Assembly: GCA_963784355.1 (NCBI GenBank) | Contig: CAWAQU010000003.1 | Location: 96,001-160,000 of the forward strand | Source of the DNA: an uncultured bacterium | Lineage (GTDB): Bacteria; Patescibacteriota; JACMRA01 | DNA: 64,000 bases | Reading direction: 5' to 3' | Shown: in pieces, positions 1,411 to 38,586 of the stretch | Position numbering within the stretch: position 1 is the first letter of the stretch | How the letters are laid out: each line of letters starts with the position of its first letter | Notes under the pieces: model-generated | Seen by the model: only the letters and a program-made list of their open reading frames with translations | Told to the model about the DNA's origin: nothing | Database searches by the model: none | Made by a program: the position numbers and the translations under genes

Positions 1411-1430
1411 AAAAAATTCCCTATAAGGGA
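1411..1430 (-). terminator. Intrinsic terminator in the proS leader
   Basis: TCCCT-TAT-AGGGA followed by ATTTTTT on the minus strand. Confidence 0.7.
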
Positions 1431-1473
1431 TTGGAGTAAGCTTGAGCCAAAATAAAATAAATCCAGCCCAAGC

Positions 1474-1518
1474 CTATCTAGGCGGGAAATTAACTGAATT
1501 TAAGTTTGAATATTTCAT
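1474..1518 (-). CDS. Putative proS leader peptide MKYSNLNSVNFPPR (14 aa)
   Basis: ATG..TAG between a sigma70 promoter and a terminator; tandem Pro codons CCG CCT. Confidence 0.65.
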   Translation of the reverse strand: MKYSNLNSVNFPPR

Positions 1519-1527
1519 TACTCTTTA

Positions 1528-1557
1528 ATTATACCATAAATTGAAATCTGTTGTCAA
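1528..1557 (-). promoter_or_regulatory. Sigma70 promoter for the proS leader
   Basis: TTGACA-N18-TATAAT with extended -10 TG. Confidence 0.8.
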
Positions 1558-7167: not shown

Positions 7168-7869
7168 CTATGCCAAACACTGAAAAATCCTCAAATTAGG
7201 GTGTGCAAGCAAGAATTTAGCTGGAAACTCGACAGCTGATTTTTCTCCTTCCAACATTTCAGATAGGATATCACTTTTATTGTCTCCAGTAATGATCAAA
7301 AAAATTTCTTTACTGTTGAGTATACTCTCTACGGTCAAACTGATACGTTTGGTTACGCTAAAGTCCTTGGGTGCAGAGGTTTCAATTACTGTTTTTTCTT
7401 GGTGCTTTAAGTATTTTCCATTTGGAAACAAAGACGCAATATGTCCATCAGGCCCGACACCTAGAATAGTAAGATCAAAGTAAGGTCCATCCAAAGTTTC
7501 AAGCTTTTCAATGCACTCTTTTATTGTCATCTCAATTGGTAGCTTGGTATTAAAAAAATTCCATTCTTTTGCCTCTTTTACTGCAAGATCCAAACTATGA
7601 GCAATATTAAATTGATTTGATTCAGGATCAGTAGGAGCCACATAGCGCTCGTCTGTTTGATATATTTCAATTTTGTCCCATTCTAAAATAGGATTTAAAG
7701 AAATTCTTGAATAGAGAGGAAGTGGCGTTTTTCCACCTGATAAAGCAATTCTTGCTGAACCGTTTTGAGCAATAGCATCAAAAACTCGATCAACTAAAAA
7801 ATCTTCTACATCTTTGAAAAGTACATCTGGAGTTTCAAACTCAGTAACTGCAGGTCTATATATTTTCAT
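7168..7869 (-). CDS. pgl: 6-phosphogluconolactonase
   Basis: ALSGGKTP, DERYV and LGVGPDGHIASLFP motifs. Confidence 0.93.
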   Translation of the reverse strand: MKIYRPAVTEFETPDVLFKDVEDFLVDRVFDAIAQNGSARIALSGGKTPLPLYSRISLNPILEWDKIEIYQTDERYVAPTDPESNQFNIAHSLDLAVKEAKEWNFFNTKLPIEMTIKECIEKLETLDGPYFDLTILGVGPDGHIASLFPNGKYLKHQEKTVIETSAPKDFSVTKRISLTVESILNSKEIFLIITGDNKSDILSEMLEGEKSAVEFPAKFLLAHPNLRIFQCLA

Positions 7870-14918: not shown

Positions 14919-16304
14919 CTATTTTTTATTTGATTTTGGTCTTCTTTTAGTTTTCTCTTCAACTATTGAACTTGCTATATCGCTTTGCTCTTCTTGAGGT
15001 AACTCTGTTTTAGTGGTAACCTCTTCTATTTTTTCTGCTTTTACTTCATTTATCAAAGTCTCTTTTGGTAAAGCTTTATCAGAACTCTTTTCAGCTGTTC
15101 TCTTTTTTGTTAGTAAAAGATAAGCTACAATTCCCAACAAAAGTAAAACTACAAATCCTAATGTATATGTAAGGAACTTTTCACTTTTGGAATCTGCAGG
15201 CTCAGTCTTAGCCTCGTGCTTTTCCTCTTTTGGTGTCTCTTCTTTAATAGTTTGAGTTTGTTTTGTACCCTTATTTTCAATTTTGGGTTGAGTTTTACCG
15301 GACTTATATTTCTCAAAATCCGATTTTATTTGATCCAAATTAGCTTGATTCATTTCAAATTCTGTTTCTACCATTTTTGTAGGACTGATTTCCTTGACTT
15401 CAGATTTATAACTTGAAACAACCAGTGGGTCATCAAATGTAAATCTAGCCTTGTACTTACCTACCTGCCACTTACTTCCGGGAATAGACAAATAGTCCAC
15501 TTTAACAAGAGAATCTGTATAACCATAGTCACGATTAAACTTGGTCTCAATAGTTTTTCCATCAGGGCCAGTCATTTCTACTTTACCTACCATTTTTGTA
15601 AACACGTTTCCGATATTCTTAAAATTCATGTTTAGGTAAACTTCTTCATTATTTAAATGTGCGTTATCTTTAATGAAATTACTATATAGCTCTTCGGATG
15701 TGTATTTTTTATCTGGAGTAATGAATTTAAAGTTTGTAAACTCAAATCCTTTTTTCAGATCACCTGGAATTGTAATATAAAATCTTACTCCTACTCTACT
15801 TACTACATTAAGACCTGAACCTTGAGGGCCTTTTGGTGCCTCTTTAACTGCAACTACACCTGCATATTCGCCTGATTTTACATCAGTTGGTACAGTTAGT
15901 TTAAAACCGACATTTACCATTTTTTTACCAGGCACAGTGACCTCATTACTGTCTAATTTAATCCAATTACCTACCCCACTAAGATCTTCTTGATCTGTAA
16001 AAGAAAAAGATCCGTTTGCAGAAGAGTAATCCTCTGGATCAACTAACAAGCGTTTCTCTTCAGGGTCAAAATTAGAAATGGAAATACTGCTCTGGAAACT
16101 GTCCCCAGGCTTTAAAACTTTTATAAAAGAGCTTTTAGTATAGATTTCTTTTGGATCATAATTTTCACTATTTGGTCCTACAGCAATACCGCTGTTGCCA
16201 GCTGCTTCCTGTGTATTTACAGCAGCAGTAAAAGTAAAGACTGGCATCAAAGCAAAAATTAGAGTTCCTGTAGCAATGTTTTGTAAGGTTTTTGATGAGA
16301 ACAT
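14919..16304 (-). CDS. DUF916-like (WxL-interacting) cell-surface protein with C-terminal TM
   Basis: Signal peptide, LKPGD, VGNWI, PxDxxSGEYAG, RVGVRFYITIPG and KNIGNV motifs, TM anchor. Confidence 0.75.
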   Translation of the reverse strand: MFSSKTLQNIATGTLIFALMPVFTFTAAVNTQEAAGNSGIAVGPNSENYDPKEIYTKSSFIKVLKPGDSFQSSISISNFDPEEKRLLVDPEDYSSANGSFSFTDQEDLSGVGNWIKLDSNEVTVPGKKMVNVGFKLTVPTDVKSGEYAGVVAVKEAPKGPQGSGLNVVSRVGVRFYITIPGDLKKGFEFTNFKFITPDKKYTSEELYSNFIKDNAHLNNEEVYLNMNFKNIGNVFTKMVGKVEMTGPDGKTIETKFNRDYGYTDSLVKVDYLSIPGSKWQVGKYKARFTFDDPLVVSSYKSEVKEISPTKMVETEFEMNQANLDQIKSDFEKYKSGKTQPKIENKGTKQTQTIKEETPKEEKHEAKTEPADSKSEKFLTYTLGFVVLLLLGIVAYLLLTKKRTAEKSSDKALPKETLINEVKAEKIEEVTTKTELPQEEQSDIASSIVEEKTKRRPKSNKK

Positions 16305-16404
16305 AATTATTTGAGAGGTATGATTTAAGCAATTTACAGCTTTCTAACTATTTAAAAAGCTCTAAGCTGCCGACACATTTGTGTCAAGCTGGCTTTCATA
16401 TGAT

Positions 16405-17067
16405 TTATAGACCTGAAATGTCTACTGTAAGAGTACCACTATATGATTGAGCAGTAACAATTTCTTTAGTTGGAGCAGGATATTCTCCTTTAGCAGGAAT
16501 TGTAAGACTAGTTTCAATAGTACCTCCATAACTACCTCCACCTACGCTCTGATTTGAAGGGGCATCAAGTAAATTAAAATTATTACTATAGCCAACATTC
16601 GTTAAAGCTGAAAGAGAAGAGATTGTTTGAGAGGAGTTGTACGTTGTAAGGCTTGATACAAGATCAGGACCTCCTGTTACAGCTACATTTTTAACCTTAC
16701 CGGCTAAATATTTAGAAGCTGTTCCAAAATTAGCACTAACATCAGAAGCCAATAAAATTTTCTTACTGGCTAAGGTCTGTCCAGCCAAATTGGTATATTT
16801 GAACGTAGAAGTCCAACCACCTAAAGTACCACGATAATCACTAATTGTAAAAGGAATATCTGTTACACTGGTCTGGGCTGTATTGTTTAAAGTGATTCCA
16901 CTCAAAGTATAACTCGGATTTGGAATACTTATCTCAATCTGACCTGGAGCAACCGCTAAAGATACTTGAGTATTGTCTGTTGTAGCAGCTGAAACTGGGA
17001 GAGCGGTAGCAACACCTGCAGCTGCAAGTAGCATAAAACTTGCTTGTAATTGTTTTGACGTAATCAT
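16405..17067 (-). CDS. WxL-domain-like secreted protein
   Basis: Signal peptide; ISDYRGTLGGW and terminal YSGTLT motifs. Confidence 0.7.
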   Translation of the reverse strand: MITSKQLQASFMLLAAAGVATALPVSAATTDNTQVSLAVAPGQIEISIPNPSYTLSGITLNNTAQTSVTDIPFTISDYRGTLGGWTSTFKYTNLAGQTLASKKILLASDVSANFGTASKYLAGKVKNVAVTGGPDLVSSLTTYNSSQTISSLSALTNVGYSNNFNLLDAPSNQSVGGGSYGGTIETSLTIPAKGEYPAPTKEIVTAQSYSGTLTVDISGL

Positions 17068-17170
17068 AGATATTTGTTTTTTGTGTTTGTTTTGTTTTTA
17101 CAAACTGATAAGTGGTACTTAAAAAGTTGCAACTTCTTTTGTGTACTTAACATCAATTATATACCTATTT

Positions 17171-18331
17171 TTAGACCTGGTCAAATTTTTGTAATTTAAG
17201 CACCAAATGCCCCACAAAAGAGTCTTTTCTGCTGTATGTTAAATACTTATCAGTATCAAAATTTATATAGTTATAGCTTGTATTTGCCACCAAATCATCT
17301 AAAAAGTTCGGTAAATGTGACTTGCCGTGTATTCGATAAAATGGTAAACAAAAAACAATTTCAGAAATATCAAGATTATCAGCATGTTTTATTAACTTCT
17401 GCCAAATTCCTTTTAAATTATCCCATTCTTGTTCAATCTGCTCTACTGTTGGAGTCCGCTTAAAGTTGAAACCCAAGTAACCTTCTGTCACAATAGCTAA
17501 TCCATTTATTTTCTCTTTACTTAAGTACTTAGTTGCCTGATCTAAATCACGAGCATCTAGTGTAAATATTGCAGCAAGCTTTTCCGAACCCAAGTCCACT
17601 TTTCTAAATCTACTCCAATAATTCAAAGCAAAGTCAAAATTATCCTTGATTTCTTGTTTTAGCACTTCCCCATCTAAATCCGAAGCATACTGCCGATTTT
17701 TTAGATCAATCCCAGCAACTAATAATCTCCCTGAACCACAGAAAGGGTCCCAAATGATTTGCTTTTTAGTATAATTCTGCAATGTTCTAGCCAATTTTAA
17801 ATTGATAAGCCCCCTACTCATATCTCCTGCTGGCAAGCCAGTGTCCAAGTTTTGCCAAAATTGCTGATCAAAAAAATTTCTTATTCTTCCTAAAATAATT
17901 TTATCTTCGTATATGAAAGTAATTAACCAATTTTTTGTTTGTTTCCAATGACCGTATGCCAAATTGTTAGTGTAATCTTGTATATTTATTTTTTTGGATC
18001 CCACTTCTTTAGAAACTATATAAGCTTTTTTGTGCAGCTCAACAGGCAAAACCAAGCCAAGTTTCTTTATTGGCTCGTCTTGACTCAATAGATAGTCTCT
18101 AAGTGTTTGTAAAATTTCAGACTCCAATTCACTAGTCTTACCTGTATTTTCCCAAGATTTTATAATTTCACCTTGATAAACTAAAGAACCTGTGGTGTTT
18201 ACGTCCAGAAATGTATTTCCTAGAAGGTATGCTTTGTCGGTAATAAAACCAGTTTCCTGAGTTAGTTTAGTAAATTCGGAGATTCCAAATTGAGGTTGAT
18301 GTCCTAATCTGTAAAAGTATTTAAAGTCCAT
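17171..18331 (-). CDS. Trm11/UPF0020-like SAM-dependent RNA methyltransferase
   Basis: KLAR, WDPFCGSG, SDLD, LDAR and VTEGYLG motifs. Confidence 0.75.
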   Translation of the reverse strand: MDFKYFYRLGHQPQFGISEFTKLTQETGFITDKAYLLGNTFLDVNTTGSLVYQGEIIKSWENTGKTSELESEILQTLRDYLLSQDEPIKKLGLVLPVELHKKAYIVSKEVGSKKINIQDYTNNLAYGHWKQTKNWLITFIYEDKIILGRIRNFFDQQFWQNLDTGLPAGDMSRGLINLKLARTLQNYTKKQIIWDPFCGSGRLLVAGIDLKNRQYASDLDGEVLKQEIKDNFDFALNYWSRFRKVDLGSEKLAAIFTLDARDLDQATKYLSKEKINGLAIVTEGYLGFNFKRTPTVEQIEQEWDNLKGIWQKLIKHADNLDISEIVFCLPFYRIHGKSHLPNFLDDLVANTSYNYINFDTDKYLTYSRKDSFVGHLVLKLQKFDQV

Positions 18332-18333
18332 AA

Positions 18334-19632
18334 TTAATTGCCTGAAGAATCGATATTTTTTATTGTTGTTTTAGTTGAAACGAGTTTTCTAAATTCTAAT
18401 AACGCCGTATAGGTACTCAATACTATAAATTCACTTTTTGCCTCCATTATTTTATTCAAAAGTTGATCAAGGTTTTCAATATAATTTTCTGAATTCACAA
18501 CACTATTTGCATATTCAAATCTCAAAAGTATGTCCAGACCCCTAGTTCCACCGGTATAAATTTGATTTATAGGTTGAGTGGTTACAAAATCTTCCAAATC
18601 AATATCCCAAAGCCAAGAAACATCTTTGCCATCTGCTATTTTGTCATTGATCAGAACAGCTAAGTTAATTGCTTGTTTTTGGTTATTATCGGAAATATAG
18701 TTTAAAACTTGATTGAATCCGGCCGGATTTTTAACTAACATTAATTTAATCCTACTTTCCCCTACTTGAATTTCTTCACCCCTGCCAAAAACAGGTTCAA
18801 AGTTCATAATAGGATCTAGGGCTCTTGTACCAAACTCTTCATAAGCAGGTAAAAAAGCTGCCAGAGCATTATAAATATTATATGTCCCGGGTAATTTGAG
18901 GTTGATTTTGTGGATTTTGTTATCTCCCGTTGCTACTTGAAAATTATTTCCATGAATGTTGTAAGCAATAAATTTTTCGCTGAAATTAATTTCTATATCT
19001 TCCGTACTTTCGAATTGTGGTTTTTTAGCTAAAGGTAGATTTAAACCAAAGCCATAAATTTTACCTTTGAAGTCATTTACACACTTAAGCAGTTTTTTGT
19101 CATCAGAATTCAAGTACAGTTTAAAATCAGGTTTTTTGGAACTTAATTTGATTGATTCCTCAAAATAATGCAGAGTTTTATCAATTTCACCATAAGCATC
19201 CAATTGGTCTCTAAAAATATTAGTTAATATCAATTTATCCGGTAAAATATATTTGCACAGCTTTGGTAAAGAAGCTTCTTCAACTTCTAAAATGGCTATT
19301 TTATTGATGTTTCTGCCTTGACCATCCAAATTCAATAGTAAGCTGCTAGCCACTCCTCTTAAAATATTAGCACCACCCCTATTTGTACAAACTTGTACTC
19401 CGTTTTGTTCATAAATATCAACCAGGATTGCTCTAGTTGTAGTTTTACCGTTGGTTCCGCTAATGAAAATAATCTGCTCAAAATCTTTGCCTATATAACC
19501 TAAAATGTCTATGAAGTATTTCTCTATCACGAGCCCGGGCAAACTTGTACCACTACCTTTTTTTAAAGCTCTACTTAAATAAGCCAGGGTTTTAGCAAAA
19601 TATGAAAGTAGTATGGTTTTTAATCTCAGCAT
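18334..19632 (-). CDS. murT: MurT-like Mur ligase (DUF1727), lipid II amidation subunit
   Basis: GTSLPG, GTNGKTTT, NIFRDQLD, LVKNPAG, ADGKDVSWLWD and TYTALL motifs. Confidence 0.9.
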   Translation of the reverse strand: MLRLKTILLSYFAKTLAYLSRALKKGSGTSLPGLVIEKYFIDILGYIGKDFEQIIFISGTNGKTTTRAILVDIYEQNGVQVCTNRGGANILRGVASSLLLNLDGQGRNINKIAILEVEEASLPKLCKYILPDKLILTNIFRDQLDAYGEIDKTLHYFEESIKLSSKKPDFKLYLNSDDKKLLKCVNDFKGKIYGFGLNLPLAKKPQFESTEDIEINFSEKFIAYNIHGNNFQVATGDNKIHKINLKLPGTYNIYNALAAFLPAYEEFGTRALDPIMNFEPVFGRGEEIQVGESRIKLMLVKNPAGFNQVLNYISDNNQKQAINLAVLINDKIADGKDVSWLWDIDLEDFVTTQPINQIYTGGTRGLDILLRFEYANSVVNSENYIENLDQLLNKIMEAKSEFIVLSTYTALLEFRKLVSTKTTIKNIDSSGN

Positions 19633-19635
19633 ATT

Positions 19636-20277
19636 TTAATTTTGTGGAACAATTTGCTTGGGGCTAGGTATTTTTTCTACGATTGTTTCAAGTAATTTAT
19701 CAACTCCCAATCCTGTCTTAGCGCTTACATGCAATATTTCATCTCTTGGATAACCTAAAATTCTTTCAATTTCCTCACTTCTAGTTGCAATATCCGCATT
19801 TGGTAAGTCAATTTTATTTAAAACGGGGATAATAGCCAAATCCTGTTCCATTGCTGAGTATAAATTTGCTAGAGTTTGAGCTTGAATACCTTGGGTAGCG
19901 TCTACTACAAGCACCGCGCCTTCACAAGCGGCCAAACTACGGGAAACTTCATAAGAAAAATCCACATGTCCGGGTGTATCTATTAAGTTTAAAACGAAGT
20001 TTTTGCTTTTCCAAGACTCGTATTTTTGGATATCTTCAGTACTCAGATCAATCATTTCATCATTTTCAGCAGTAAACTGATAATTATAATTCATTCTAAC
20101 AGGCTGTAACTTTATTGTGATGCCTCTTTCTCTTTCCAAATCCATTTTATCTAGGGCCTGCTCTTTCATATCACGCATAGTAACAGTGCCAGTAAGCTCC
20201 ATTAATCTGTCGGCTAAAGTACTCTTCCCGTGATCAATATGGGCAATAATACAAAAATTTCTAATAAACTCAAGCAT
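19636..20277 (-). CDS. lepA: Elongation factor 4 (LepA), G domain only
   Basis: [50 protein letters not shown] and SAKTG motifs; 213 aa, ends after IPSP. Confidence 0.9.
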
Positions 20278-20330
20278 GTTTGATAAATGGCTTGTAATTT
20301 AGCCCTTGTCAACTTGTCCAACTAAAGAAA

Positions 20331-21263
20331 TTAGCTACTCATTTTTATAACCTCTTTAATTGCCAAAAAGCCCGCATCATGATCTCCCAATTTAGGGTTT
20401 TTGTCAGGCATAATAATATAGCAATCTATTGGGGCAACATGCTTCTGGATATCATCTGTTGCAAAAATCTGACCTGACTTTACTTTGGTACCGGTTTTTA
20501 CGTCATCTACAATAAATTTAAAATTAATTCCCGGCTTTATAGGGGCGATAAATTTGTAAACTTCAATTACATCTTGGTTATCTGTTTCCACAACTTCTAT
20601 AATAGGCAATTTTTCCTGATCCATTAAATTAAAGTGGTTGATCGCCATAACAACATGCTCCAAAGCTACATTTACAGTTGAACTAGCAGTATTATTACCA
20701 CACTCTATTGCCAGGCTTGGTATATTTAGCTGATTTGCCACACTTACTATTAATCCTGGAGTATGAGTTTCTTCAGTAGAGAAATGCAGTTTTATATTGG
20801 TAATTTTAGTGCTTAAATCTTTACTTTTTTCATCGGAAGCATAAATTACAGCCTGAAAATTACCCACGCTTACGGAGTGCATATCCAGTAAAAAACTAAT
20901 ATCCTTGTTTTCTTTTAAGAATTTCATCACCTCTATAGCCCTTCTTTCTTCAACTGAATTGGGCAAAATATTATCAGTAAATACTCTATTCATATTGATA
21001 TCAATAAATCTTAGATTCTGGGCATATGCTTCAGGATTACCTATAATAAAAGTAATTTTACCATGTTTAAGTGCATGGTTATTTTTAGTAAAATATTTGT
21101 GAAAATCAATCATAGCCTCTACACTAGCTGGTTCACTACCGTGTAAAGCACCCACAAAAACTAGATGTGGCCCCGGCAGTCCTGAATCAATTTGAAAACT
21201 ATGAGACAAGCTTGTGTTGGCATGCTGTTGGAAATATTTAATATTACTTTCTGTGTTTGACAT
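20331..21263 (-). CDS. AstE/AspA (M14-like zinc) deacylase/peptidase family protein
   Basis: HGSE, GNP, NMNRVF, LDMHS and IECG motifs; start placed at MSNTES. Confidence 0.87.
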   Translation of the reverse strand: MSNTESNIKYFQQHANTSLSHSFQIDSGLPGPHLVFVGALHGSEPASVEAMIDFHKYFTKNNHALKHGKITFIIGNPEAYAQNLRFIDINMNRVFTDNILPNSVEERRAIEVMKFLKENKDISFLLDMHSVSVGNFQAVIYASDEKSKDLSTKITNIKLHFSTEETHTPGLIVSVANQLNIPSLAIECGNNTASSTVNVALEHVVMAINHFNLMDQEKLPIIEVVETDNQDVIEVYKFIAPIKPGINFKFIVDDVKTGTKVKSGQIFATDDIQKHVAPIDCYIIMPDKNPKLGDHDAGFLAIKEVIKMSS

Positions 21264-21276
21264 AGGCTTATATAAC

Positions 21277-21299
21277 AAAAAATCCCCTTTAGGTGGGGA
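21277..21299 (-). terminator. Leader terminator upstream of the AstE-family gene
   Basis: TCCCC-ACCTAAA-GGGGA followed by TTTTTT. Confidence 0.75.
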
Positions 21300-21334
21300 A
21301 TTAAATTTAATTTTAATAATGATAATAAACTAAA

Positions 21335-21391
21335 CTATTTCCCCTTGTGTGGAGTGACCATAATAATACAAAGGAGACCAGAGTTTAACAT
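21335..21391 (-). CDS. Putative leader peptide MLNSGLLCIIMVTPHKGK (18 aa)
   Basis: ATG..TAG between promoter and terminator; the 3' codons contain the anti-terminator AAGGGGAA. Confidence 0.68.
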   Translation of the reverse strand: MLNSGLLCIIMVTPHKGK

Positions 21392-21404
21392 ACTATATAC
21401 TTTA

Positions 21405-21433
21405 ATTATATTGAAAAATGCAAATTGTGTCAA
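21405..21433 (-). promoter_or_regulatory. Consensus sigma70 promoter
   Basis: TTGACA-N17-TATAAT. Confidence 0.85.
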
Positions 21434-22185
21434 GAAACCCAACTCAACCAAGTTTGGATAATTTTTATTTGGTCTTCATCTTTTAGGTCCAATTCAGGGT
21501 GCCATTGCATCCCCAAAATTTTTTTGTTTTTTATAGAGACTGCTTCAATTAAACCATCCGGAGCCACTGCTTCTACTTGTAAACCCTCGCCCAATTTGTC
21601 TACTCCTTGATGATGTATACTTGTCACCATGATTGTATTTTTATTTAAAACATCATATAGGATTCCATCTTTTTTTAAATCTACTGGGTGCACTTTTCCG
21701 GTTTCTACACTTTCATTATCAAAATCTCCATCTTCCTGCTTTTCTGCAGTATATTTAATGTGCTGCACTGGAGCATTTTCATCAAGGTGCTGAATTAAAG
21801 TACCGTTTTGGACTACGTTCAACATCTGGAAGCCACGACAAACAGCTAGTACAGGCAAATTCCTTTCCATTGCAGCTCTAATTAAATAGTAGTCATACCA
21901 ATCTTGAAAATTTTCGCTAGTTTTATTTTCCGGTCCAGTAGTGTACATACCTGGATCAATGTCTTTACCTCCAAGTACTATTAATCCGTCAGCCTCGCTG
22001 ATATATCTGGAAATTTCATCTTTTATGGTTTCCATATCATTAATTTTTGTGTGGAAAAAAGGTACTTGTGGTAAAAAACTCTGTTCAAGTAAAAAATCGG
22101 ACCATTTACTATGAATATAAATTATGGGCAAACCTTCTTTATAGGTCATAAACCTTGGTGAAATTAGTATTTTTTTCATTTTCAT
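21430..22185 (-). CDS. Peptidase C26 / gamma-glutamyl-gamma-aminobutyrate hydrolase family (class I GATase)
   Basis: GGKDIDP, AVCRGFQ, SIHHQG and QWHPE (Cys-His-Glu triad). Confidence 0.9.
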   Translation of the reverse strand: MKMKKILISPRFMTYKEGLPIIYIHSKWSDFLLEQSFLPQVPFFHTKINDMETIKDEISRYISEADGLIVLGGKDIDPGMYTTGPENKTSENFQDWYDYYLIRAAMERNLPVLAVCRGFQMLNVVQNGTLIQHLDENAPVQHIKYTAEKQEDGDFDNESVETGKVHPVDLKKDGILYDVLNKNTIMVTSIHHQGVDKLGEGLQVEAVAPDGLIEAVSIKNKKILGMQWHPELDLKDEDQIKIIQTWLSWVS

Positions 22186-22198
22186 AAAATTTAATATT

Positions 22199-22220
22199 AA
22201 AAAATCTCCCTAAATGGGAG
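22199..22220 (-). terminator. Leader terminator upstream of the peptidase C26 gene
   Basis: CTCCC-ATTTA-GGGAG followed by ATTTTTT. Confidence 0.75.
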
Positions 22221-22253
22221 TGATAAAAAATTGGTATAGATAATTTTGCTCCC

Positions 22254-22310
22254 TTAATTTGGATTGTCTATGTCACAAGTACAAGCTAAAAGTAACGCAA
22301 AATTTAACAT
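22254..22310 (-). CDS. Putative leader peptide MLNFALLLACTCDIDNPN (18 aa)
   Basis: ATG..TAA starting 6 nt after the -10 box; GGGAG anti-terminator directly after the stop. Confidence 0.68.
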   Translation of the reverse strand: MLNFALLLACTCDIDNPN

Positions 22311-22316
22311 GCTTTA

Positions 22317-22345
22317 ATTATGGCAAATAATCTATTTCGTGTCAA
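22317..22345 (-). promoter_or_regulatory. Sigma70 promoter
   Basis: TTGACA-N17-CATAAT. Confidence 0.8.
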
Positions 22346-22473
22346 AATGGTATTCATTTTCTTGTGAAAAAGTTAGGAATTAGATTGAACTCACTTTATA
22401 ATTGCATAAAGTAGTCCCATCCTTTGATTTAAAGCACAATTTCTAATTTAGGTCAATAGATGCGTAGGAACAA

Positions 22474-23019
22474 TCAACTAAACTGATAGCCTTTCAATTG
22501 ATTTTTATGGTTTTTAAAATCAAGATCAAACTTGCCGACCAGATCCCAAAAAGATTTAGAGTGGTTTTTTTCTTTTACATGAGCAAGTTCATGGATTGCC
22601 ACATAGTCTAGTAGCTCAAGTGGCACCAAGGCCAGTCTCCAGTTTAGACTAATCACATTTTTACCGCTACAAGAACCCCAGCGCGTATTAGCACTTGAAA
22701 GACGAAATTTAGTATAATTTAAGTCCATAACTTCTGACCAATGATCCAGTCTAGACTTAAGTAAAACTCTGGCTTTCTTTTTAACTTCAACCTCTTCGCT
22801 TTTAGCAACCCCAAGATTGGGGGCAGTATTTCGCTTTCTTTCTAAAACTCTTTTGATAGTATTTTGTATCCAAATCTGTTTTTTTTGAATAAAATCGTGT
22901 ATGAGATTTAAATTTGCTCTATTGGGTGCCCTTACTATCAATTCCGCATCTTTGGTGATTTGCAGACTGAGAGTTTTGCGTTTTGAGTAAATGATGTTTT
23001 TGGGAGTAATAAGGCTCAT
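22474..23019 (-). CDS. YgjP/DUF45 zinc metalloprotease-like protein
   Basis: RKTLSL, RWGSCS, HELAH and NHSxxFW motifs. Confidence 0.9.
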   Translation of the reverse strand: MSLITPKNIIYSKRKTLSLQITKDAELIVRAPNRANLNLIHDFIQKKQIWIQNTIKRVLERKRNTAPNLGVAKSEEVEVKKKARVLLKSRLDHWSEVMDLNYTKFRLSSANTRWGSCSGKNVISLNWRLALVPLELLDYVAIHELAHVKEKNHSKSFWDLVGKFDLDFKNHKNQLKGYQFS

Positions 23020-26000
23020 TATGATTCTTTTGATTCAAAAAACCTAGCTACATTCCAGATTTTATTTCCAAAATTGCGATATTTTTCACACATTTTGTCC
23101 GCAAGTTTTCCACCGAGTCTAAAATTACGATTTGGAATCATGTTGCTCATCATCGCCAATCTAAGACTATCTGAAGAAAATTTTTCAATCTGATCTTCCA
23201 CATTTAACCCGTTACCTAGGGATTTGCTCATTTTTCGTCCATGCTCGTCTAGAACAGTTGGGTGAATAACTACATTTTGGTAAGGAGTGCTGCCTGTAAA
23301 GTATTTTGAGACCAACATCATGCGCACAATCCATTGGTAAAATATCTCTCTGGCACTAACTAAATCTTTGGTAGAGTAATATGTTTCAAAATCAGTATTT
23401 TTCTGCCCTTGCAGATGGTCTAAATATCCAAGTGTACTAAGCGGCCACAAACAAGAACTAAACCATGTATCTAGTATTTTTGTTTCCTGCATCCAATTTC
23501 CTGGAATTTCAGGTTTTTCCGTACCGATTTGGATTTTTTCTTGGACTGCAGGATCATTTTGCCACTCATTAAAATTATAAAAAATGCGATTTGGATTTTT
23601 TTCTAAATTGTACCACACAGGGAATCGATGACCCCAAACCAGGTCTCTTGAAATACACCAGTCTTTTACACTTTCCAGATAGCTTATTGCTCTGTCTTTA
23701 AACTCTACCGGGTAAAAATTAGTTTCCTCAGCAGCTTGTAAACCGATTTGCTGTAAATTATTGGGTTTCTCAAGCCAAATTACTACAAGACCGTTGCTTT
23801 GAATTTTGTTGTAGTATTGCTCACCAAAAAGATTTTTATAGGTTTCTTTTATATCATTTATGGTATAATTTTCTTGAATTTCGGGTACAATTTGTGTGAA
23901 ATCAAGTTTTACACTTGCAGCTGAATCTAGATTCTGATATGTCTCAACTTTTTTAATGTTAAATTTGTAAATTTTGTTGTTTACTTTATCATTTAATTCT
24001 ATAATATCTCCTGATTTCATATCACCAAAGTATTTGTCTGGTTCTTCAGGATTTAAAGCCCTAGTTTCAACAGATTTTTCTCCTGATAGGATTTTATTTA
24101 AAATATCTAACTGTAGATCATTTCTAAAATTTAAAGACCAGGTTTTAGTATTGCTATCTTCACCAGTACTTTTTACTACAGGATTAGTGTAGCTCAAGAA
24201 GAACTCTTCTGAAATTAGGGGTTCAATAACCGTTTTTGATCTCTCGCAAATTACCACATTATGCTCATAATCCCAATTTATATCCAGTTCTTCACCAATT
24301 AAATCACGTAGAAATTTTATTCCTTCTTTGTATGAGTAGTTTGCTGGATCAAAAGCTTCACTTTTTAGACTTTTGGCTACTTTTTCCCTAATTTTTGCTT
24401 CCTGTTCAATAAATTCGGTTTTTACTGGTACAAATTCTGTTTCTATAAGTTTTTTAATAACTGCTAACCTACCCTGCTCTACCGTCAACCCTTCAAACTC
24501 ACCACAAGCTTCAGTAAGTTTTCCATCTCGATTTATAGGATGCTTAAATCCAAAGCTATACCAACTTTTATTTAAAAATTCTTGATATAATTCATAATCA
24601 AATTGATCACTGGCCGGAGTGATTTTTAATATACCTGTACCAAAATCCGGATCGACTTTTTCAGAAATCAGAAGCCTAATCTTTTTTATATCCAAACTGG
24701 GTAGCTCAAAAGATATACCTAAAAGACCCGTTTTAATTGCTTCAATGGTTTCCAATGCAATTTTTTCATCAAATCCCCCATGGTCTCTTTCAAAAAGATC
24801 TAAGTTAAAGTATTCATAAAATTTACTTGGGTGCATGGCGATTCCAATATCCCCAAAAATTGTCTCCGGCCTAACAGTTGATACTTTTACTCTGGGTAAT
24901 TCAAGAGCGGATTTAATATATTTAGAAGCAAACTCATACAAAAAGGCTTTGTCCGGATTTTTATTTTGATCAAACTCCACCCCACTAAATTTATACTCAA
25001 AAGTAATAAACGGATCCACTCTATTTTCGTACTCAATTTCCCCGGCCACATCACTCACCGCAGTTTGCAGGCCAACGGACCAATTCACCAAATAGCTCCC
25101 TTTGTAAATCAACCCATCTTCCCAGTACTTTTGAAAAGCATAATTTATCATTTTATTAGCTCGCTCGTCTAAAGTAAACAAACTTCTTTGATAGTCCGGA
25201 GTGTCTCCCAAAATAGAACTTTGCATTTTTTGATGATCTCGCCACTCATCCACCTTGGACCAAGCTAAATCAACCCAAAGTTCTCGGTTATTTTGTTTTA
25301 ACCACTTTGGCCAAGTATTTTTTTCAATATCTTTCAATTCAGGTGCTGTTTCTAAGATTTTTTCATCAAAATCACCTTTTTTAATCAATTTATCAATCAC
25401 CCCTTCCAACTGTATTCCGGCATGATCTACTCCCGGATACCATAAGGTTTTTTGAGCTTTTTGTCTGTGAATTCTGGTTAAAGTGTCCATTAAATAGTGT
25501 TGAAAAGCATGTCCTGTATGTAAGGCTCCAGTAAGATTTGGCGGGGGCATTAAAATGCTATAATTCTCGTTAGCACCTACCTCCTTATGTAAAAATTCAA
25601 TTATTTTAGGACTGATTGGGTACATTTTAGTCGCATAAAAGTCATATTTTTCCTGCTCAGATGTAAATTCATTAGTGGTGTGTCCAATTTCATCTGGTAT
25701 AAAGAAAGTAGAATAAGAATTTTCAATTCCAAATATAGGCTTTTCTGTAGCAGTACCCTGTGTGATATGTTCTTCAGTTAATATTTCTCCATTTGGCAAG
25801 GCAATAGCCAGAGCCTGCACCACATACATTTTTCTGTCTTTTCCTTCAAGTTTTTCTAAGGCCTCATGAATTTTTTGCTCGGCAAATCTATCCCTATCTT
25901 CTTTAGACAATGAGTTGAAATATTCATCACTATCTCCAAACATTACTTTTTTACTATCCGTTCCAGGCCAATCTAAAGCTGAAAAGACAAAGCCCCTGTC

Positions 26001-26345
26001 TTGTGAAATTGTGGGTAAATTACTAATTTTAGCATATTCTTTAGCTTTAGTCAGGGCATCCTGTGTAAAACTCTCTCCGGTTTCTTCAACTTCAGGAAAA
26101 TCAATATGTGGTAAATCATTCAAAGTCAGCAGTTCAAAATGCTTATCTAGAGCAAGTTTTTGCCAAGCTAATTTAAAAATTTTAATTTTGTGTTTGTTGG
26201 TAGTTGCAAACAGGACTTTTTTTAATGAAGTCTCTAAATTTTGATTTTTTATTTGAATTTCAGGTGAACCCACTCCATTATTTTGCCAGGTATTATAGAT
26301 ACTTTCTTCAAATTCTTTCGGATTATAGCTGCTAGGCAAAGACAT
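23019..26345 (-). CDS. valS: Valyl-tRNA synthetase catalytic part, with inserted Ham1 and ASCH domains, lacking the C-terminal anticodon-binding region
   Basis: PPPNLTGALHTGHA, GVDHAGI, STVRPET, DWCISR, LDTWFSS, KMSKSLGN and NKIWNVARF motifs. Confidence 0.9.
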   Translation of the reverse strand: MSLPSSYNPKEFEESIYNTWQNNGVGSPEIQIKNQNLETSLKKVLFATTNKHKIKIFKLAWQKLALDKHFELLTLNDLPHIDFPEVEETGESFTQDALTKAKEYAKISNLPTISQDRGFVFSALDWPGTDSKKVMFGDSDEYFNSLSKEDRDRFAEQKIHEALEKLEGKDRKMYVVQALAIALPNGEILTEEHITQGTATEKPIFGIENSYSTFFIPDEIGHTTNEFTSEQEKYDFYATKMYPISPKIIEFLHKEVGANENYSILMPPPNLTGALHTGHAFQHYLMDTLTRIHRQKAQKTLWYPGVDHAGIQLEGVIDKLIKKGDFDEKILETAPELKDIEKNTWPKWLKQNNRELWVDLAWSKVDEWRDHQKMQSSILGDTPDYQRSLFTLDERANKMINYAFQKYWEDGLIYKGSYLVNWSVGLQTAVSDVAGEIEYENRVDPFITFEYKFSGVEFDQNKNPDKAFLYEFASKYIKSALELPRVKVSTVRPETIFGDIGIAMHPSKFYEYFNLDLFERDHGGFDEKIALETIEAIKTGLLGISFELPSLDIKKIRLLISEKVDPDFGTGILKITPASDQFDYELYQEFLNKSWYSFGFKHPINRDGKLTEACGEFEGLTVEQGRLAVIKKLIETEFVPVKTEFIEQEAKIREKVAKSLKSEAFDPANYSYKEGIKFLRDLIGEELDINWDYEHNVVICERSKTVIEPLISEEFFLSYTNPVVKSTGEDSNTKTWSLNFRNDLQLDILNKILSGEKSVETRALNPEEPDKYFGDMKSGDIIELNDKVNNKIYKFNIKKVETYQNLDSAASVKLDFTQIVPEIQENYTINDIKETYKNLFGEQYYNKIQSNGLVVIWLEKPNNLQQIGLQAAEETNFYPVEFKDRAISYLESVKDWCISRDLVWGHRFPVWYNLEKNPNRIFYNFNEWQNDPAVQEKIQIGTEKPEIPGNWMQETKILDTWFSSCLWPLSTLGYLDHLQGQKNTDFETYYSTKDLVSAREIFYQWIVRMMLVSKYFTGSTPYQNVVIHPTVLDEHGRKMSKSLGNGLNVEDQIEKFSSDSLRLAMMSNMIPNRNFRLGGKLADKMCEKYRNFGNKIWNVARFFESKES

Positions 26346-26395
26346 GGATTTATCTTTTCTAAAAAAGAAATTTTAGGCAAGTCGAGACATCATTT

Positions 26396-26824
26396 CTAAC
26401 TTTGATACTCGCCATCAAGCAAACTCTGGAAATTTGAAAATAGAAAATTTTGTGGTAATTCCTTATAATCTAGCCACCTGGCAATACAACTATCCGCTTC
26501 AAAAGCGGCAAAATCCGAATCAATTTCCATATAGTAGTTATAGCTTGTTTGTTTAAGATTATAATTATCCGGTTTAAAGACCCAGCCGTAGATACTTTTT
26601 CCCAAATAAACTTTTTTAGTGATTCTTTCTCTAGAAATCCCAGTTTCTTCCTCAAACTCGCGTATTAAAGCTTGGTCCGGACTTTCGCCCTCATCAATCC
26701 CACCGCCTATAGCTGAATACTTAAAATTTACATAAGGATTATGCAGCTCCTCAAACACCAGATATTTTTTGGTTTCAGGATTGAAAATTATCGCTTTTGA
26801 ACTTTCCCTGTACTTTGTTTCCAA
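26396..26824 (-). CDS. NUDIX hydrolase (second of a tandem pair; start uncertain)
   Basis: GGGIDEGESPDQALIREFEEETG Nudix box. Confidence 0.85.
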   Translation of the reverse strand: METKYRESSKAIIFNPETKKYLVFEELHNPYVNFKYSAIGGGIDEGESPDQALIREFEEETGISRERITKKVYLGKSIYGWVFKPDNYNLKQTSYNYYMEIDSDFAAFEADSCIARWLDYKELPQNFLFSNFQSLLDGEYQS

Positions 26825-27259
26825 ACCATCTTGAAAATGATATTCTTCTTTTAAGTAATTACTTTACATCAAAGATTTATAGTTCTTCAGTAACCAATTT
26901 CCCCATGAGCCCATTTCTGCCAAAATTTCTTGAATGCTCAACCACCGGCTAACACATTGGTCTGCTTCAAAACCTTCGATTGTACTTGAAGTTTCCAAAT
27001 AGTATATTTCATGAAAATACTTGTAGTTAATCATTTTTGGTTTCATCACAAAACCTTGTATAACTGAGCCAAGATAGTTGATTTTAGTAATTTCAGATTT
27101 TTTAATGCCGGACTCCTCTTCAAATTCCCTAAGTAGAGTTGTTTCCGCATTTTCTCCCAGGTCGGATTTGCCTCCAATAAAACTATATTTGTCCCAGGCG
27201 TAAGGATTGCCAACTTCCTCAAACACCAGATATTTTTTGGTTTCAGGATTGAAAATTAT
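26748..27259. repeat. 44-bp perfect direct repeat (26748-26791 and 27216-27259) shared by the two NUDIX genes
   Basis: tcctcaaacaccagatattttttggtttcaggattgaaaattat occurs twice. Confidence 0.9.
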
Positions 27260-37457: not shown

Positions 37458-37895
37458 ATGGCAGACGCAAAAGGCGGCAAAAAAATAAAAGCCCAGATCA
37501 AACTAGTGATTAAAGCCGGAGCAGCAAATCCTGCACCTCCAGTAGGTTCTACCTTGGGACCACAAGGTATCAATTTAATGCAATTTTGTAAGGAATTCAA
37601 TGAGAAAACCTCTACAATGACAGGTAGTGTACCTTGTATTGTAACTATTTATGATGATAGAAGTTTTGAATTTATTTTAAAGACTCCTGCAGTATCTGAA
37701 TTGATTAAACAAGCACTTGGTATTACTTCAGGTTCAAACGACCCTCTCAAAAAGAAGGTAGGGTCTATCACAAAGACTCAAATTAGATCTATTGCCGAAA
37801 AGAAAATGGAGGATTTAAACTGTCATACTGTTGAATCAGCTGAAAAGCAAGTAGAAGGAACATGTAGAAGTATGGGCGTTAAAATTGCAGCATAA
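37458..37895 (+). CDS. rplK: 50S ribosomal protein L11
   Basis: AGAANPAPPVG, FCKEFN and GTCRSMG motifs. Confidence 0.98.
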   Translation: MADAKGGKKIKAQIKLVIKAGAANPAPPVGSTLGPQGINLMQFCKEFNEKTSTMTGSVPCIVTIYDDRSFEFILKTPAVSELIKQALGITSGSNDPLKKKVGSITKTQIRSIAEKKMEDLNCHTVESAEKQVEGTCRSMGVKIAA

Positions 37896-37911
37896 TTGCT
37901 TAATTATATTT

Positions 37912-38586
37912 ATGTCAGACAAATCTTTTTCAATCTCTGAAGCTATTAATCAGGGATGGCAAACATTTAGCAAAAATCTTAGTACTTATGCAATTGCTTT
38001 AGCAGTTTCTATAGTATTATACACTATTTCCGCAGTTTTCAGTGATGGCAAAAATGATACTCAAACAGCTTTAGAATCAATAGGTGCACTTATTTCATTT
38101 GCATTATCAACTATTGTGACTTTGGGATACATCAAAGTACTTTTAAAATTGCTTGAGGATAAAAAACCTGAAATTAGTGATTTCTTTTACTTTAAGTCTG
38201 GAATATTTAGTTACATTGTAGCTTCAATTTTACTAACTCCTTTAATTTTTATCGGATATATACTATTGATTATCCCGGGAATAATTTTAAGTATAAGATT
38301 TAGTCTTGTTTCATACTTTATTGCAGACAAAAACATGGGCCCTATTGATGCTATCGGAGCCAGTTGGAATGCTACAAAAGGTCAAACATTACAATTATTT
38401 CTATTTGGTCTAGCTAATTTAGGGTTAAATATATTAGGTCTATTAGCTTTGGGAATCGGGTTATTTATTACGGTTCCAGTATCTCAAACTGCAATGGCTT
38501 ATGTTTACAAAAAATTGCTAGCTGAAGTTGAAAGTAACTCTGAAATCAAGGATGCTTCTGAAGTTGAAGTCATTCCAGCTGCTTAA
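37912..38586 (+). CDS. DUF975-like integral membrane protein
   Basis: LLIIPGI, AIxASW and GIGLFITVP motifs; start placed at MSDKSF. Confidence 0.75.
   Translation: MSDKSFSISEAINQGWQTFSKNLSTYAIALAVSIVLYTISAVFSDGKNDTQTALESIGALISFALSTIVTLGYIKVLLKLLEDKKPEISDFFYFKSGIFSYIVASILLTPLIFIGYILLIIPGIILSIRFSLVSYFIADKNMGPIDAIGASWNATKGQTLQLFLFGLANLGLNILGLLALGIGLFITVPVSQTAMAYVYKKLLAEVESNSEIKDASEVEVIPAA

Follow-up and report, generated by a model that had tools for sequence, protein, structure and literature searches.

Between the gene for a C26 peptidase and that for a divergent AstE/AspA-family (M14-like) deacylase, the minus strand of a 64,000-nucleotide stretch of patescibacterial DNA (the whole stretch analysed, hereafter the window) holds a complete leader. 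This raises the question of whether the leader acts as a ribosome-mediated transcription attenuator of the M14-like gene. An initial annotation, made from the letters of the sequence, had described a classic attenuator with three alternative pairings (1:2, 2:3 and 3:4), in which a ribosome stalled on a short leader ORF would prevent termination. This interpretation is partly supported by our in silico analysis. The leader elements and their alternative pairings are present, the layout recurs at other genes, and on balance we favour a real and probably functional attenuator.

To our knowledge, there has been hardly any study of how genes are regulated in the candidate phyla radiation. Our literature searches found nothing that links leader-peptide attenuation or T-boxes with Patescibacteria or the candidate phyla radiation. 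As the mechanism itself is textbook, the value of the case lies in its setting, in a start without a ribosome-binding site and in its unusual targets.

Organization of the leader upstream of the M14-like gene

The features of the leader (hereafter the M14 leader) are listed in Table 1. Its promoter has a -35 box that overlaps the stop codon of the C26 gene (21432-21430). This promoter is among the 17 matches to a strict promoter pattern on both strands of the 1.14-Mb genome. The start codon of the short ORF lies 13 nt past the -10 box, and from this spacing we infer a 5' UTR of about 5-7 nt for the leader transcript. The ORF lies between promoter and terminator and appears to be placed for translation; its second codon specifies Leu, and codons 6-12 read Leu-Leu-Cys-Ile-Ile-Met-Val. 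An A-U-rich spacer separates the G-rich segment 2 from the hairpin, a predicted intrinsic terminator directly upstream of the regulated gene. This hairpin has five pairs, of which four are G-C, and a 7-nt loop, and is followed by a T6 tract (21282-21277) that stops 14 nt short of the deacylase start at 21263. The whole promoter-ORF-terminator unit takes up about 120 nt.

Table 1. Coordinates of the M14 leader, of the gene downstream and of similar leaders (positions are those of the window unless a contig or locus is named)
Feature	Location	Strand	Description
Sigma-70-type promoter	21405..21433	-	-35 box 21433-21428, 17-nt spacer, -10 box 21410-21405; 12 of 12 consensus positions
Leader short ORF	21335..21391	-	ATG at 21391, 18 codons and TAG stop (21337-21335)
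Segment 1	21368..21377	-	Within codons 5-8 of the short ORF; Leu-Leu-Cys codons 21376-21368; partner is segment 2
Segment 2 (antiterminator 5' strand)	21339..21348	-	G-rich, in the last four codons of the short ORF; pairs with segment 1 or segment 3
Inner A-U helix of the 2:3 antiterminator	21304..21336	-	Two 10-nt arms, 21336-21327 and 21313-21304
Segments 3 and 4, intrinsic-terminator-like hairpin	21277..21300	-	5' arm 21299-21295 (segment 3, 21300-21295), loop 21294-21288, 3' arm 21287-21283
Regulated gene	20331..21263	-	310 aa, distant AstE/AspA (M14-like) deacylase family member
Paralogous leader of the C26 peptidase gene (22185-21430)	22198..22345	-	Promoter 22345-22317, short ORF 22310-22254, hairpin 22220-22206 and T6
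proS leader	1412..1557	-	Strong promoter, 14-codon ORF ending Pro-Pro-Arg, long hairpin, weak T-tract hairpin; proS from 1276 to the window edge
thrS leader (outside the window)	Contig C3, ~64,470-64,680 (locus L020)		16 codons with six consecutive Thr, G-rich segment at the stop, terminator
lysS leader	Contig C6, ~37,840-38,120 (locus L021)		Five Lys in 16 codons
serS leader	Contig C4, ~7,530-7,680 (locus L022)		12-codon ORF with one Ser codon
Thr-run thrS leaders of named loci	L060, L061, L063, L064, L071, L078, L087, L102		

The leader peptide, the coordinates and the complementarities given in the initial annotation are all correct. Segment 1 pairs with segment 2 with one C-A mismatch and two G-U pairs, and the terminator 5' arm is a second pairing partner for segment 2. 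Segment 2 is thus common to 1:2 and 2:3, and segment 3 to 2:3 and 3:4, so that the pairings are mutually exclusive.

Translation start without a Shine-Dalgarno signal

Over the whole genome, no Shine-Dalgarno signal was detected: an SD-like tetramer was found at -20 to -4 in 40 out of 621 long ORFs, versus 50 out of 621 control windows. Since genes here typically start independently of an SD sequence, the lack of a ribosome-binding site does not speak against translation of the short ORF, and the G-rich segments of the leaders are not ribosome-binding sites. Six leader ORFs of this genome begin 6-13 nt beyond a -10 box, which suggests that the leader transcripts are leaderless or nearly so. 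Several ordinary genes of this genome start 5-8 nt past a -10 box, and leaderless mRNAs may be common. For the deacylase gene itself, use of the terminator 3' arm as a Shine-Dalgarno sequence for a TTG start at 21278 was considered and rejected, because the ATG at 21263 agrees better with the N-termini of homologues and because SD signals are lacking in this genome.

Alternative folds and ribosome position

In the M14 leader, the folding energy is -8.3 kcal/mol for 1:2 (-12.5 kcal/mol with its outer extension), -13.6 kcal/mol for 2:3 and -8.1 kcal/mol for 3:4. The inner A-U helix appears both in the fold of the 2:3 region and in the minimum-energy fold of the full length. At equilibrium, the full-length untranslated RNA has 2:3 as its strongest structure and no terminator; as 2:3 is more stable than 1:2 and 3:4, an untranslated transcript would read through. 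The description as "classic" is therefore right in that the three alternatives exist, but not in their balance, since 2:3 outweighs the other two and the untranslated RNA is antiterminated. Given this dominance of 2:3, the working core looks like a ribosome at the stop codon that masks segment 2.

In our ribosome model, a stretch reaching 15 nt to either side of the first base of the A-site codon was kept unpaired. The minimum-energy fold of the M14 leader then contains the antiterminator (2:3) with the A site at codons 2-11 and the terminator (3:4) from codon 12 to the stop. Within this model, the proposal that a stall would free segment 2 and antiterminate is upheld for codons 2-11.

The following course of events can be proposed. 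The strong promoter would fire at the end of the upstream C26 gene and give a transcript that begins almost at the start of the 18-codon ORF, which would be translated without a Shine-Dalgarno site. An unhindered ribosome, once at the stop codon, would cover segment 2; the terminator would form just ahead of the deacylase gene and transcription would end. An early stall, with codons 2-11 (Leu-Leu-Cys-Ile-Ile-Met) in the A site, would leave segment 2 free to pair with the 5' arm of the terminator. The polymerase would then enter the deacylase gene and probably continue into the lepA-like and murT genes. Such readthrough, already suggested in the initial annotation, is plausible, as no terminator-like site was found between the end of the deacylase gene (20331) and the start of the lepA-like gene (20277).

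Taken by itself, the M14 sequence is only modestly better than chance, and remains compatible with it. The fold of the whole leader has a z score of -1.42, and 11 of 200 shuffles fold equally well. The 2:3 duplex with the terminator arm was matched in 70 out of 2000 dinucleotide shuffles for the M14 leader and in 17 out of 2000 for the leader of the C26 gene. The complete switch behaviour (antitermination on an early stall, termination on a run to the stop) was displayed by 23 of 300 shuffled M14 leaders. The short terminator stem (5 bp) and the lack of a long single-codon run also count against an attenuator. As these single-sequence statistics are weak, the main case leans on the layout recurring at other genes.

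Such modest statistics would also be expected of an ordinary gene boundary. The hairpin would then chiefly serve to end transcription of the C26 gene, the deacylase gene would be expressed from the promoter by way of a leaky terminator, and the short ORF, like the 1:2 and 2:3 pairings, would be there by chance. In line with this, the hairpin lies 130 nt past the C26 stop codon on the same strand, and terminator-like sites show no overall enrichment across positions 16000-27000 (9 versus 5.9 +/- 2.7 in shuffles). We nevertheless consider this explanation unlikely. The promoter is upstream of the terminator and only 14 nt separate the T tract from the start codon, which leaves no other promoter for the deacylase gene. 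Moreover, a hairpin with a double role, as C26 terminator and as M14 attenuator, would be compatible with the attenuation that we favour.

A paralogous leader at the C26 peptidase gene

The C26 gene is itself preceded by a leader of the same build. The promoter of this C26 leader matches 11 of 12 consensus positions, and its short ORF, again of 18 codons, begins 6 nt past the -10 box. The stop codon of the ORF directly abuts a G-rich pentamer (22253-22249) that is complementary to the 5' arm of the hairpin. The hairpin and its T6 tract span 22220-22199, the end of the stem being 20 nt ahead of the C26 gene start. In the fold, the Leu codons form segment 1 and are paired against the G-rich segment 2; the 2:3 helix is of just 5 bp (-6.1 vs. 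-8.0 kcal/mol). In one soil DNA sequencing run, three fragments of 35-110 nt were found, over positions 22164-22459 only and without variants.

A motif past the -10 box and the first three codons are common to the M14 and C26 leaders, and this combination occurs at no other place in the genome. Both leader peptides have Leu-Leu at codons 6-7 with a Cys nearby. This likeness of neighbouring peptides, with their common first three residues and Leu-Leu pair, and the compactness of a unit complete with promoter, ORF and terminator could also point to a separate small gene, which would yield a short RNA or a hydrophobic peptide of 18 residues that has its own function, the deacylase being expressed by leakage only. 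There are precedents in Sinorhizobium, where leader peptides and attenuator RNAs, once released, are reported to be able to act in trans (PMC6614838, PMC7298713). We regard this explanation as very improbable: outside the shared start and the Leu-Leu pair the two peptides are dissimilar, among the loci of relatives the regions ahead of homologous M14 or C26 genes showed no homologous short ORF, and a trans role would supplement the cis role rather than replace it.

Leaders of aminoacyl-tRNA synthetase genes in the same genome

Our genome-wide look covered 141 terminator-like hairpins and the 17 strict promoter matches, and the list of leaders was curated by hand. A strict automatic scan for the layout was not retained as a leader list. 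It recovered the M14 and C26 leaders together with four seemingly unrelated rows (one repeated locus in three copies and one further locus), and missed those of thrS, lysS and serS because only the stem arm was compared.

Some other sites of this genome deserve mention. A 224-aa gene occurs in three identical copies with identical upstream regions (contigs C7 ~7,116, C8 ~10,665 and C9 ~132,660) and is probably a repeated mobile element. On contig C1 (31,738-31,830, plus strand), a perfect promoter sits directly after the end of a GAPDH-like gene, and a hairpin and T tract come no more than about 55 nt further on. No start codon is nearby, and this may be a small RNA.

The leader layout was found before four aminoacyl-tRNA synthetase (aaRS) genes: thrS, lysS, serS and, less clearly, proS, which has a second promoter-like site between its leader and the gene. 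Only these 4 of 17 aaRS places inspected here have the layout, which counts against our reading; the remainder have plain promoters. The NCBIfam identities of thrS, serS and proS are above cut-off, while that of lysS is the best match yet below cut-off.

The ribosome mask was applied to the six leaders of this genome and to the thrS leaders of four relatives, 10 leaders in all. For the thrS leader of this genome, antitermination is predicted exactly at Thr codons 6-10. Among the relatives, the antiterminated window overlaps the Thr run in G014 and G025, and comprises one or two codons that touch the first Thr codon only in G016 and G022. The C26 and proS leaders do not switch in this equilibrium model, their terminator being present in every state. 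Judged by eye, in 9 of these 10 leaders the stop codon of the short ORF lies inside or at most 7 nt from the pairing partner of the terminator arm, which is a G-rich segment except in G025; in the G016 leader, the stop is 15 nt downstream of it.

These leaders bear on the ordinary gene boundary considered above. The order of elements recurs at C26, thrS, lysS and serS, and each time the stop of the short ORF adjoins the antiterminator strand. In addition, the six Thr codons of the thrS leader, kept in other genomes, are hard to call chance.

They also bear on whether a ribosome is needed at all. A protein, an uncharged tRNA or a small molecule might bind the repeated G-rich segments and select 2:3 or 3:4, the short ORF being incidental. 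Two similar G-rich segments are indeed present in both the M14 and C26 leaders, and the failure of the C26 leader to switch under the mask would fit such a ribosome-free antitermination. We hold it to be quite unlikely. In the window, no Rfam leader family reached its gathering score (only tRNA and 5S rRNA did), and at 21150-21550 the best Rfam match had an E value of 0.16, all matches being far below the gathering score. Across 20 related loci, no T-box or other Rfam family was found. Moreover, the stop codons consistently fall on the antiterminator strand, and thrS and lysS have runs of cognate codons in their leaders; both features point to the ribosome as the sensor. T-boxes had also been suspected at thrS of relatives from a by-eye resemblance, and were dropped since none reached the Rfam gathering score in the window or in the 20 related loci.

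In the window, a 1108-aa ORF (23019-26345, minus strand) fuses a Ham1/RdgB-type NTP pyrophosphatase domain with a valyl-tRNA synthetase. The synthetase part ends at about position 590 of the 860-position valS profiles, and its anticodon-binding end may be missing or encoded elsewhere. The ThrRS (locus L020, 131-3067, minus strand, 978 aa) is interrupted, between its N-terminal and catalytic parts, by about 350 extra residues in which two GNAT/RimI-like acetyltransferase matches were found. Alanyl-tRNA synthetase matches come in pieces, on contig C9 (41,085-41,996, a 308-aa ORF) and on contig C13 (20,102-20,754, with in-frame TGA and TAA).

Conservation of the leaders in related genomes

From 40 relatives, we obtained 29 thrS loci, 4 of which (L026, L031, L036 and L038) have a short ORF of 4-7 consecutive Thr codons with a G-rich end and a T-tract hairpin. 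One of these four leaders comes from another family of the same order, and one starts with GTG and was spotted by eye. With the ThrRS protein, 80 named loci were also retrieved, mostly titled Patescibacteria group, Dojkabacteria, Saccharibacteria and the like, with some otherwise labelled. In eight of these 80 loci (Table 1), the region ahead of thrS has a run of four to six Thr codons and then a terminator, a count to be read with the fact that in 18 of the 80 the match begins past residue 500 and the flank may miss the start of the gene. A ninth flagged locus, without a Thr run, is not counted. A Thr-run leader-peptide attenuator of thrS therefore looks widespread in Patescibacteria-type genomes, as judged from the predicted elements.

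The two hydrolase genes gave a different picture. Homologues of the M14-like protein occur in 14 of the 40 relatives, with at most 39% identity, no synteny and unrelated upstream regions, so that no orthologous leader was found, as would also be expected if the M14 leader were an ordinary gene boundary. C26 homologues occur in 4 of the 40 relatives, without the leader upstream. A search with the M14-like protein in genome contigs (88 pattern matches) and metagenome contigs (159 pattern matches) yielded no confirmed relative. Support for the leader from elsewhere consists only of the paralogous leaders of this genome and the thrS leaders of other genomes.

A broader reading, which we put forward as tentative and somewhat doubtful, is that a ribosome-sensed regulon of near-leaderless leader-peptide terminator attenuators operates in this Patescibacteria-type organism and in many relatives. 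Such attenuators would stand in the place of T-boxes at thrS, lysS and serS, and here would have spread to two adjacent hydrolases, amino-acid scavengers induced by Leu or Cys shortage. If this were true, the codon content of leaders could reveal which nutrient is supplied by uncharacterised genes in uncultured, auxotrophic bacteria. If the leaders work as proposed, such regulators can be read straight from sequence, the thrS leader saying "threonine", and the response of two hydrolases to amino-acid shortage would be a clue to the scavenging of an auxotrophic epibiont.

Comparison with known attenuators

The enterobacterial trp, leu, thr, ilv and his operons and pheST are controlled by the classical leader-peptide transcription attenuators. 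The M14 leader resembles these in its promoter-proximal short ORF, its exclusive 1:2, 2:3 and 3:4 hairpins, its terminator before the structural gene and a fold that would be set by the position of the ribosome. Unlike them, it has no Shine-Dalgarno site, and its short ORF lies only about 5-7 nt from the presumed transcript start. It also differs in that the final codons of the short ORF contain the antiterminator strand, 2:3 outweighs 3:4, no single codon forms a long run, and the targets here are two hydrolases and not a biosynthetic operon. None of the Rfam leader families (Leu, Thr, Phe, His, Trp) was detected at the gathering threshold, the best match being Phe_leader with 19.2 bits versus 55.

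T-box leaders are the usual control of aaRS genes in Gram-positive bacteria. The leaders described here would share with them an antiterminator versus terminator output that responds to tRNA charging, but the proposed sensor is a translated short ORF.

In Streptomyces, classical attenuators are predicted upstream of trpS and leuS (PMC1262725). They combine a leader peptide with antiterminator and terminator hairpins over non-biosynthetic genes, which is the class of the thrS, lysS and serS leaders found here. They are the closest precedent for the aaRS leaders of this genome. They belong to another phylum and to other genes, and the M14 and C26 targets, unlike theirs, are not aaRS.

For sensing from the extreme 5' end, the closest precedent is found in mycobacteria, whose leaderless polycysteine short-ORF attenuators are reported to act on translation and not on termination (10.1101/834739). 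There too, the 5'-most short ORF senses amino acids by stalling, and several loci share the design (a "ribulon"). In contrast, the output here would be a terminator hairpin and T tract, in a genome without a Shine-Dalgarno signal. Consecutive Cys codons are absent as well, the M14 leader having a single Cys and the C26 leader two separated by one codon. The mycobacterial combination of consecutive Cys codons with a sequestered downstream ribosome-binding site was not found in the M14 leader.

Regulated genes and candidate sensed amino acid

The assignment of the regulated gene to the AstE/M14 type, also made in the initial annotation, is borne out by Pfam: the protein matches PF24827 with 51.1 bits (cut-off 25; E value 1.6e-13). 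The NCBIfam models for aspartoacylase and AstE match it far under their cut-offs, and solved AstE structures only at E = 0.001 or weaker. The C26 protein resembles the gamma-glutamyl hydrolases of the PuuD type, below cut-off. As the device is present a second time at this gamma-glutamyl-hydrolase-like gene, both hydrolases would be co-induced on a shortage of charged tRNA, most likely for Leu or Cys.

These two amino acids are also favoured as the most likely ones sensed by the M14 and C26 leaders. Taken together, the two peptides contain Cys at 3 of 36 residues, versus 0.8% genome-wide (P ~0.003, binomial), and Leu at 7 of 36, versus 9.8% genome-wide (P ~0.06, binomial). Leu is the sole residue to form consecutive runs in both leaders and is located in segment 1: the M14 leader has Leu-Leu, one Cys and Ile-Ile, and the C26 leader Leu-Leu-Leu and Cys-x-Cys. 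The Cys codons take part in local pairing, which could account for their presence without a sensing role. Moreover, with a permissive window as broad as that of the M14 leader (codons 2-11), the response could be multivalent or general.

Downstream of the deacylase gene, the gene initially named lepA (19636-20277, minus strand) encodes 213 aa and matches the GTPase domain of EF4 only, the profile being covered to about position 184 of 595. The murT gene directly follows this lepA-like gene.
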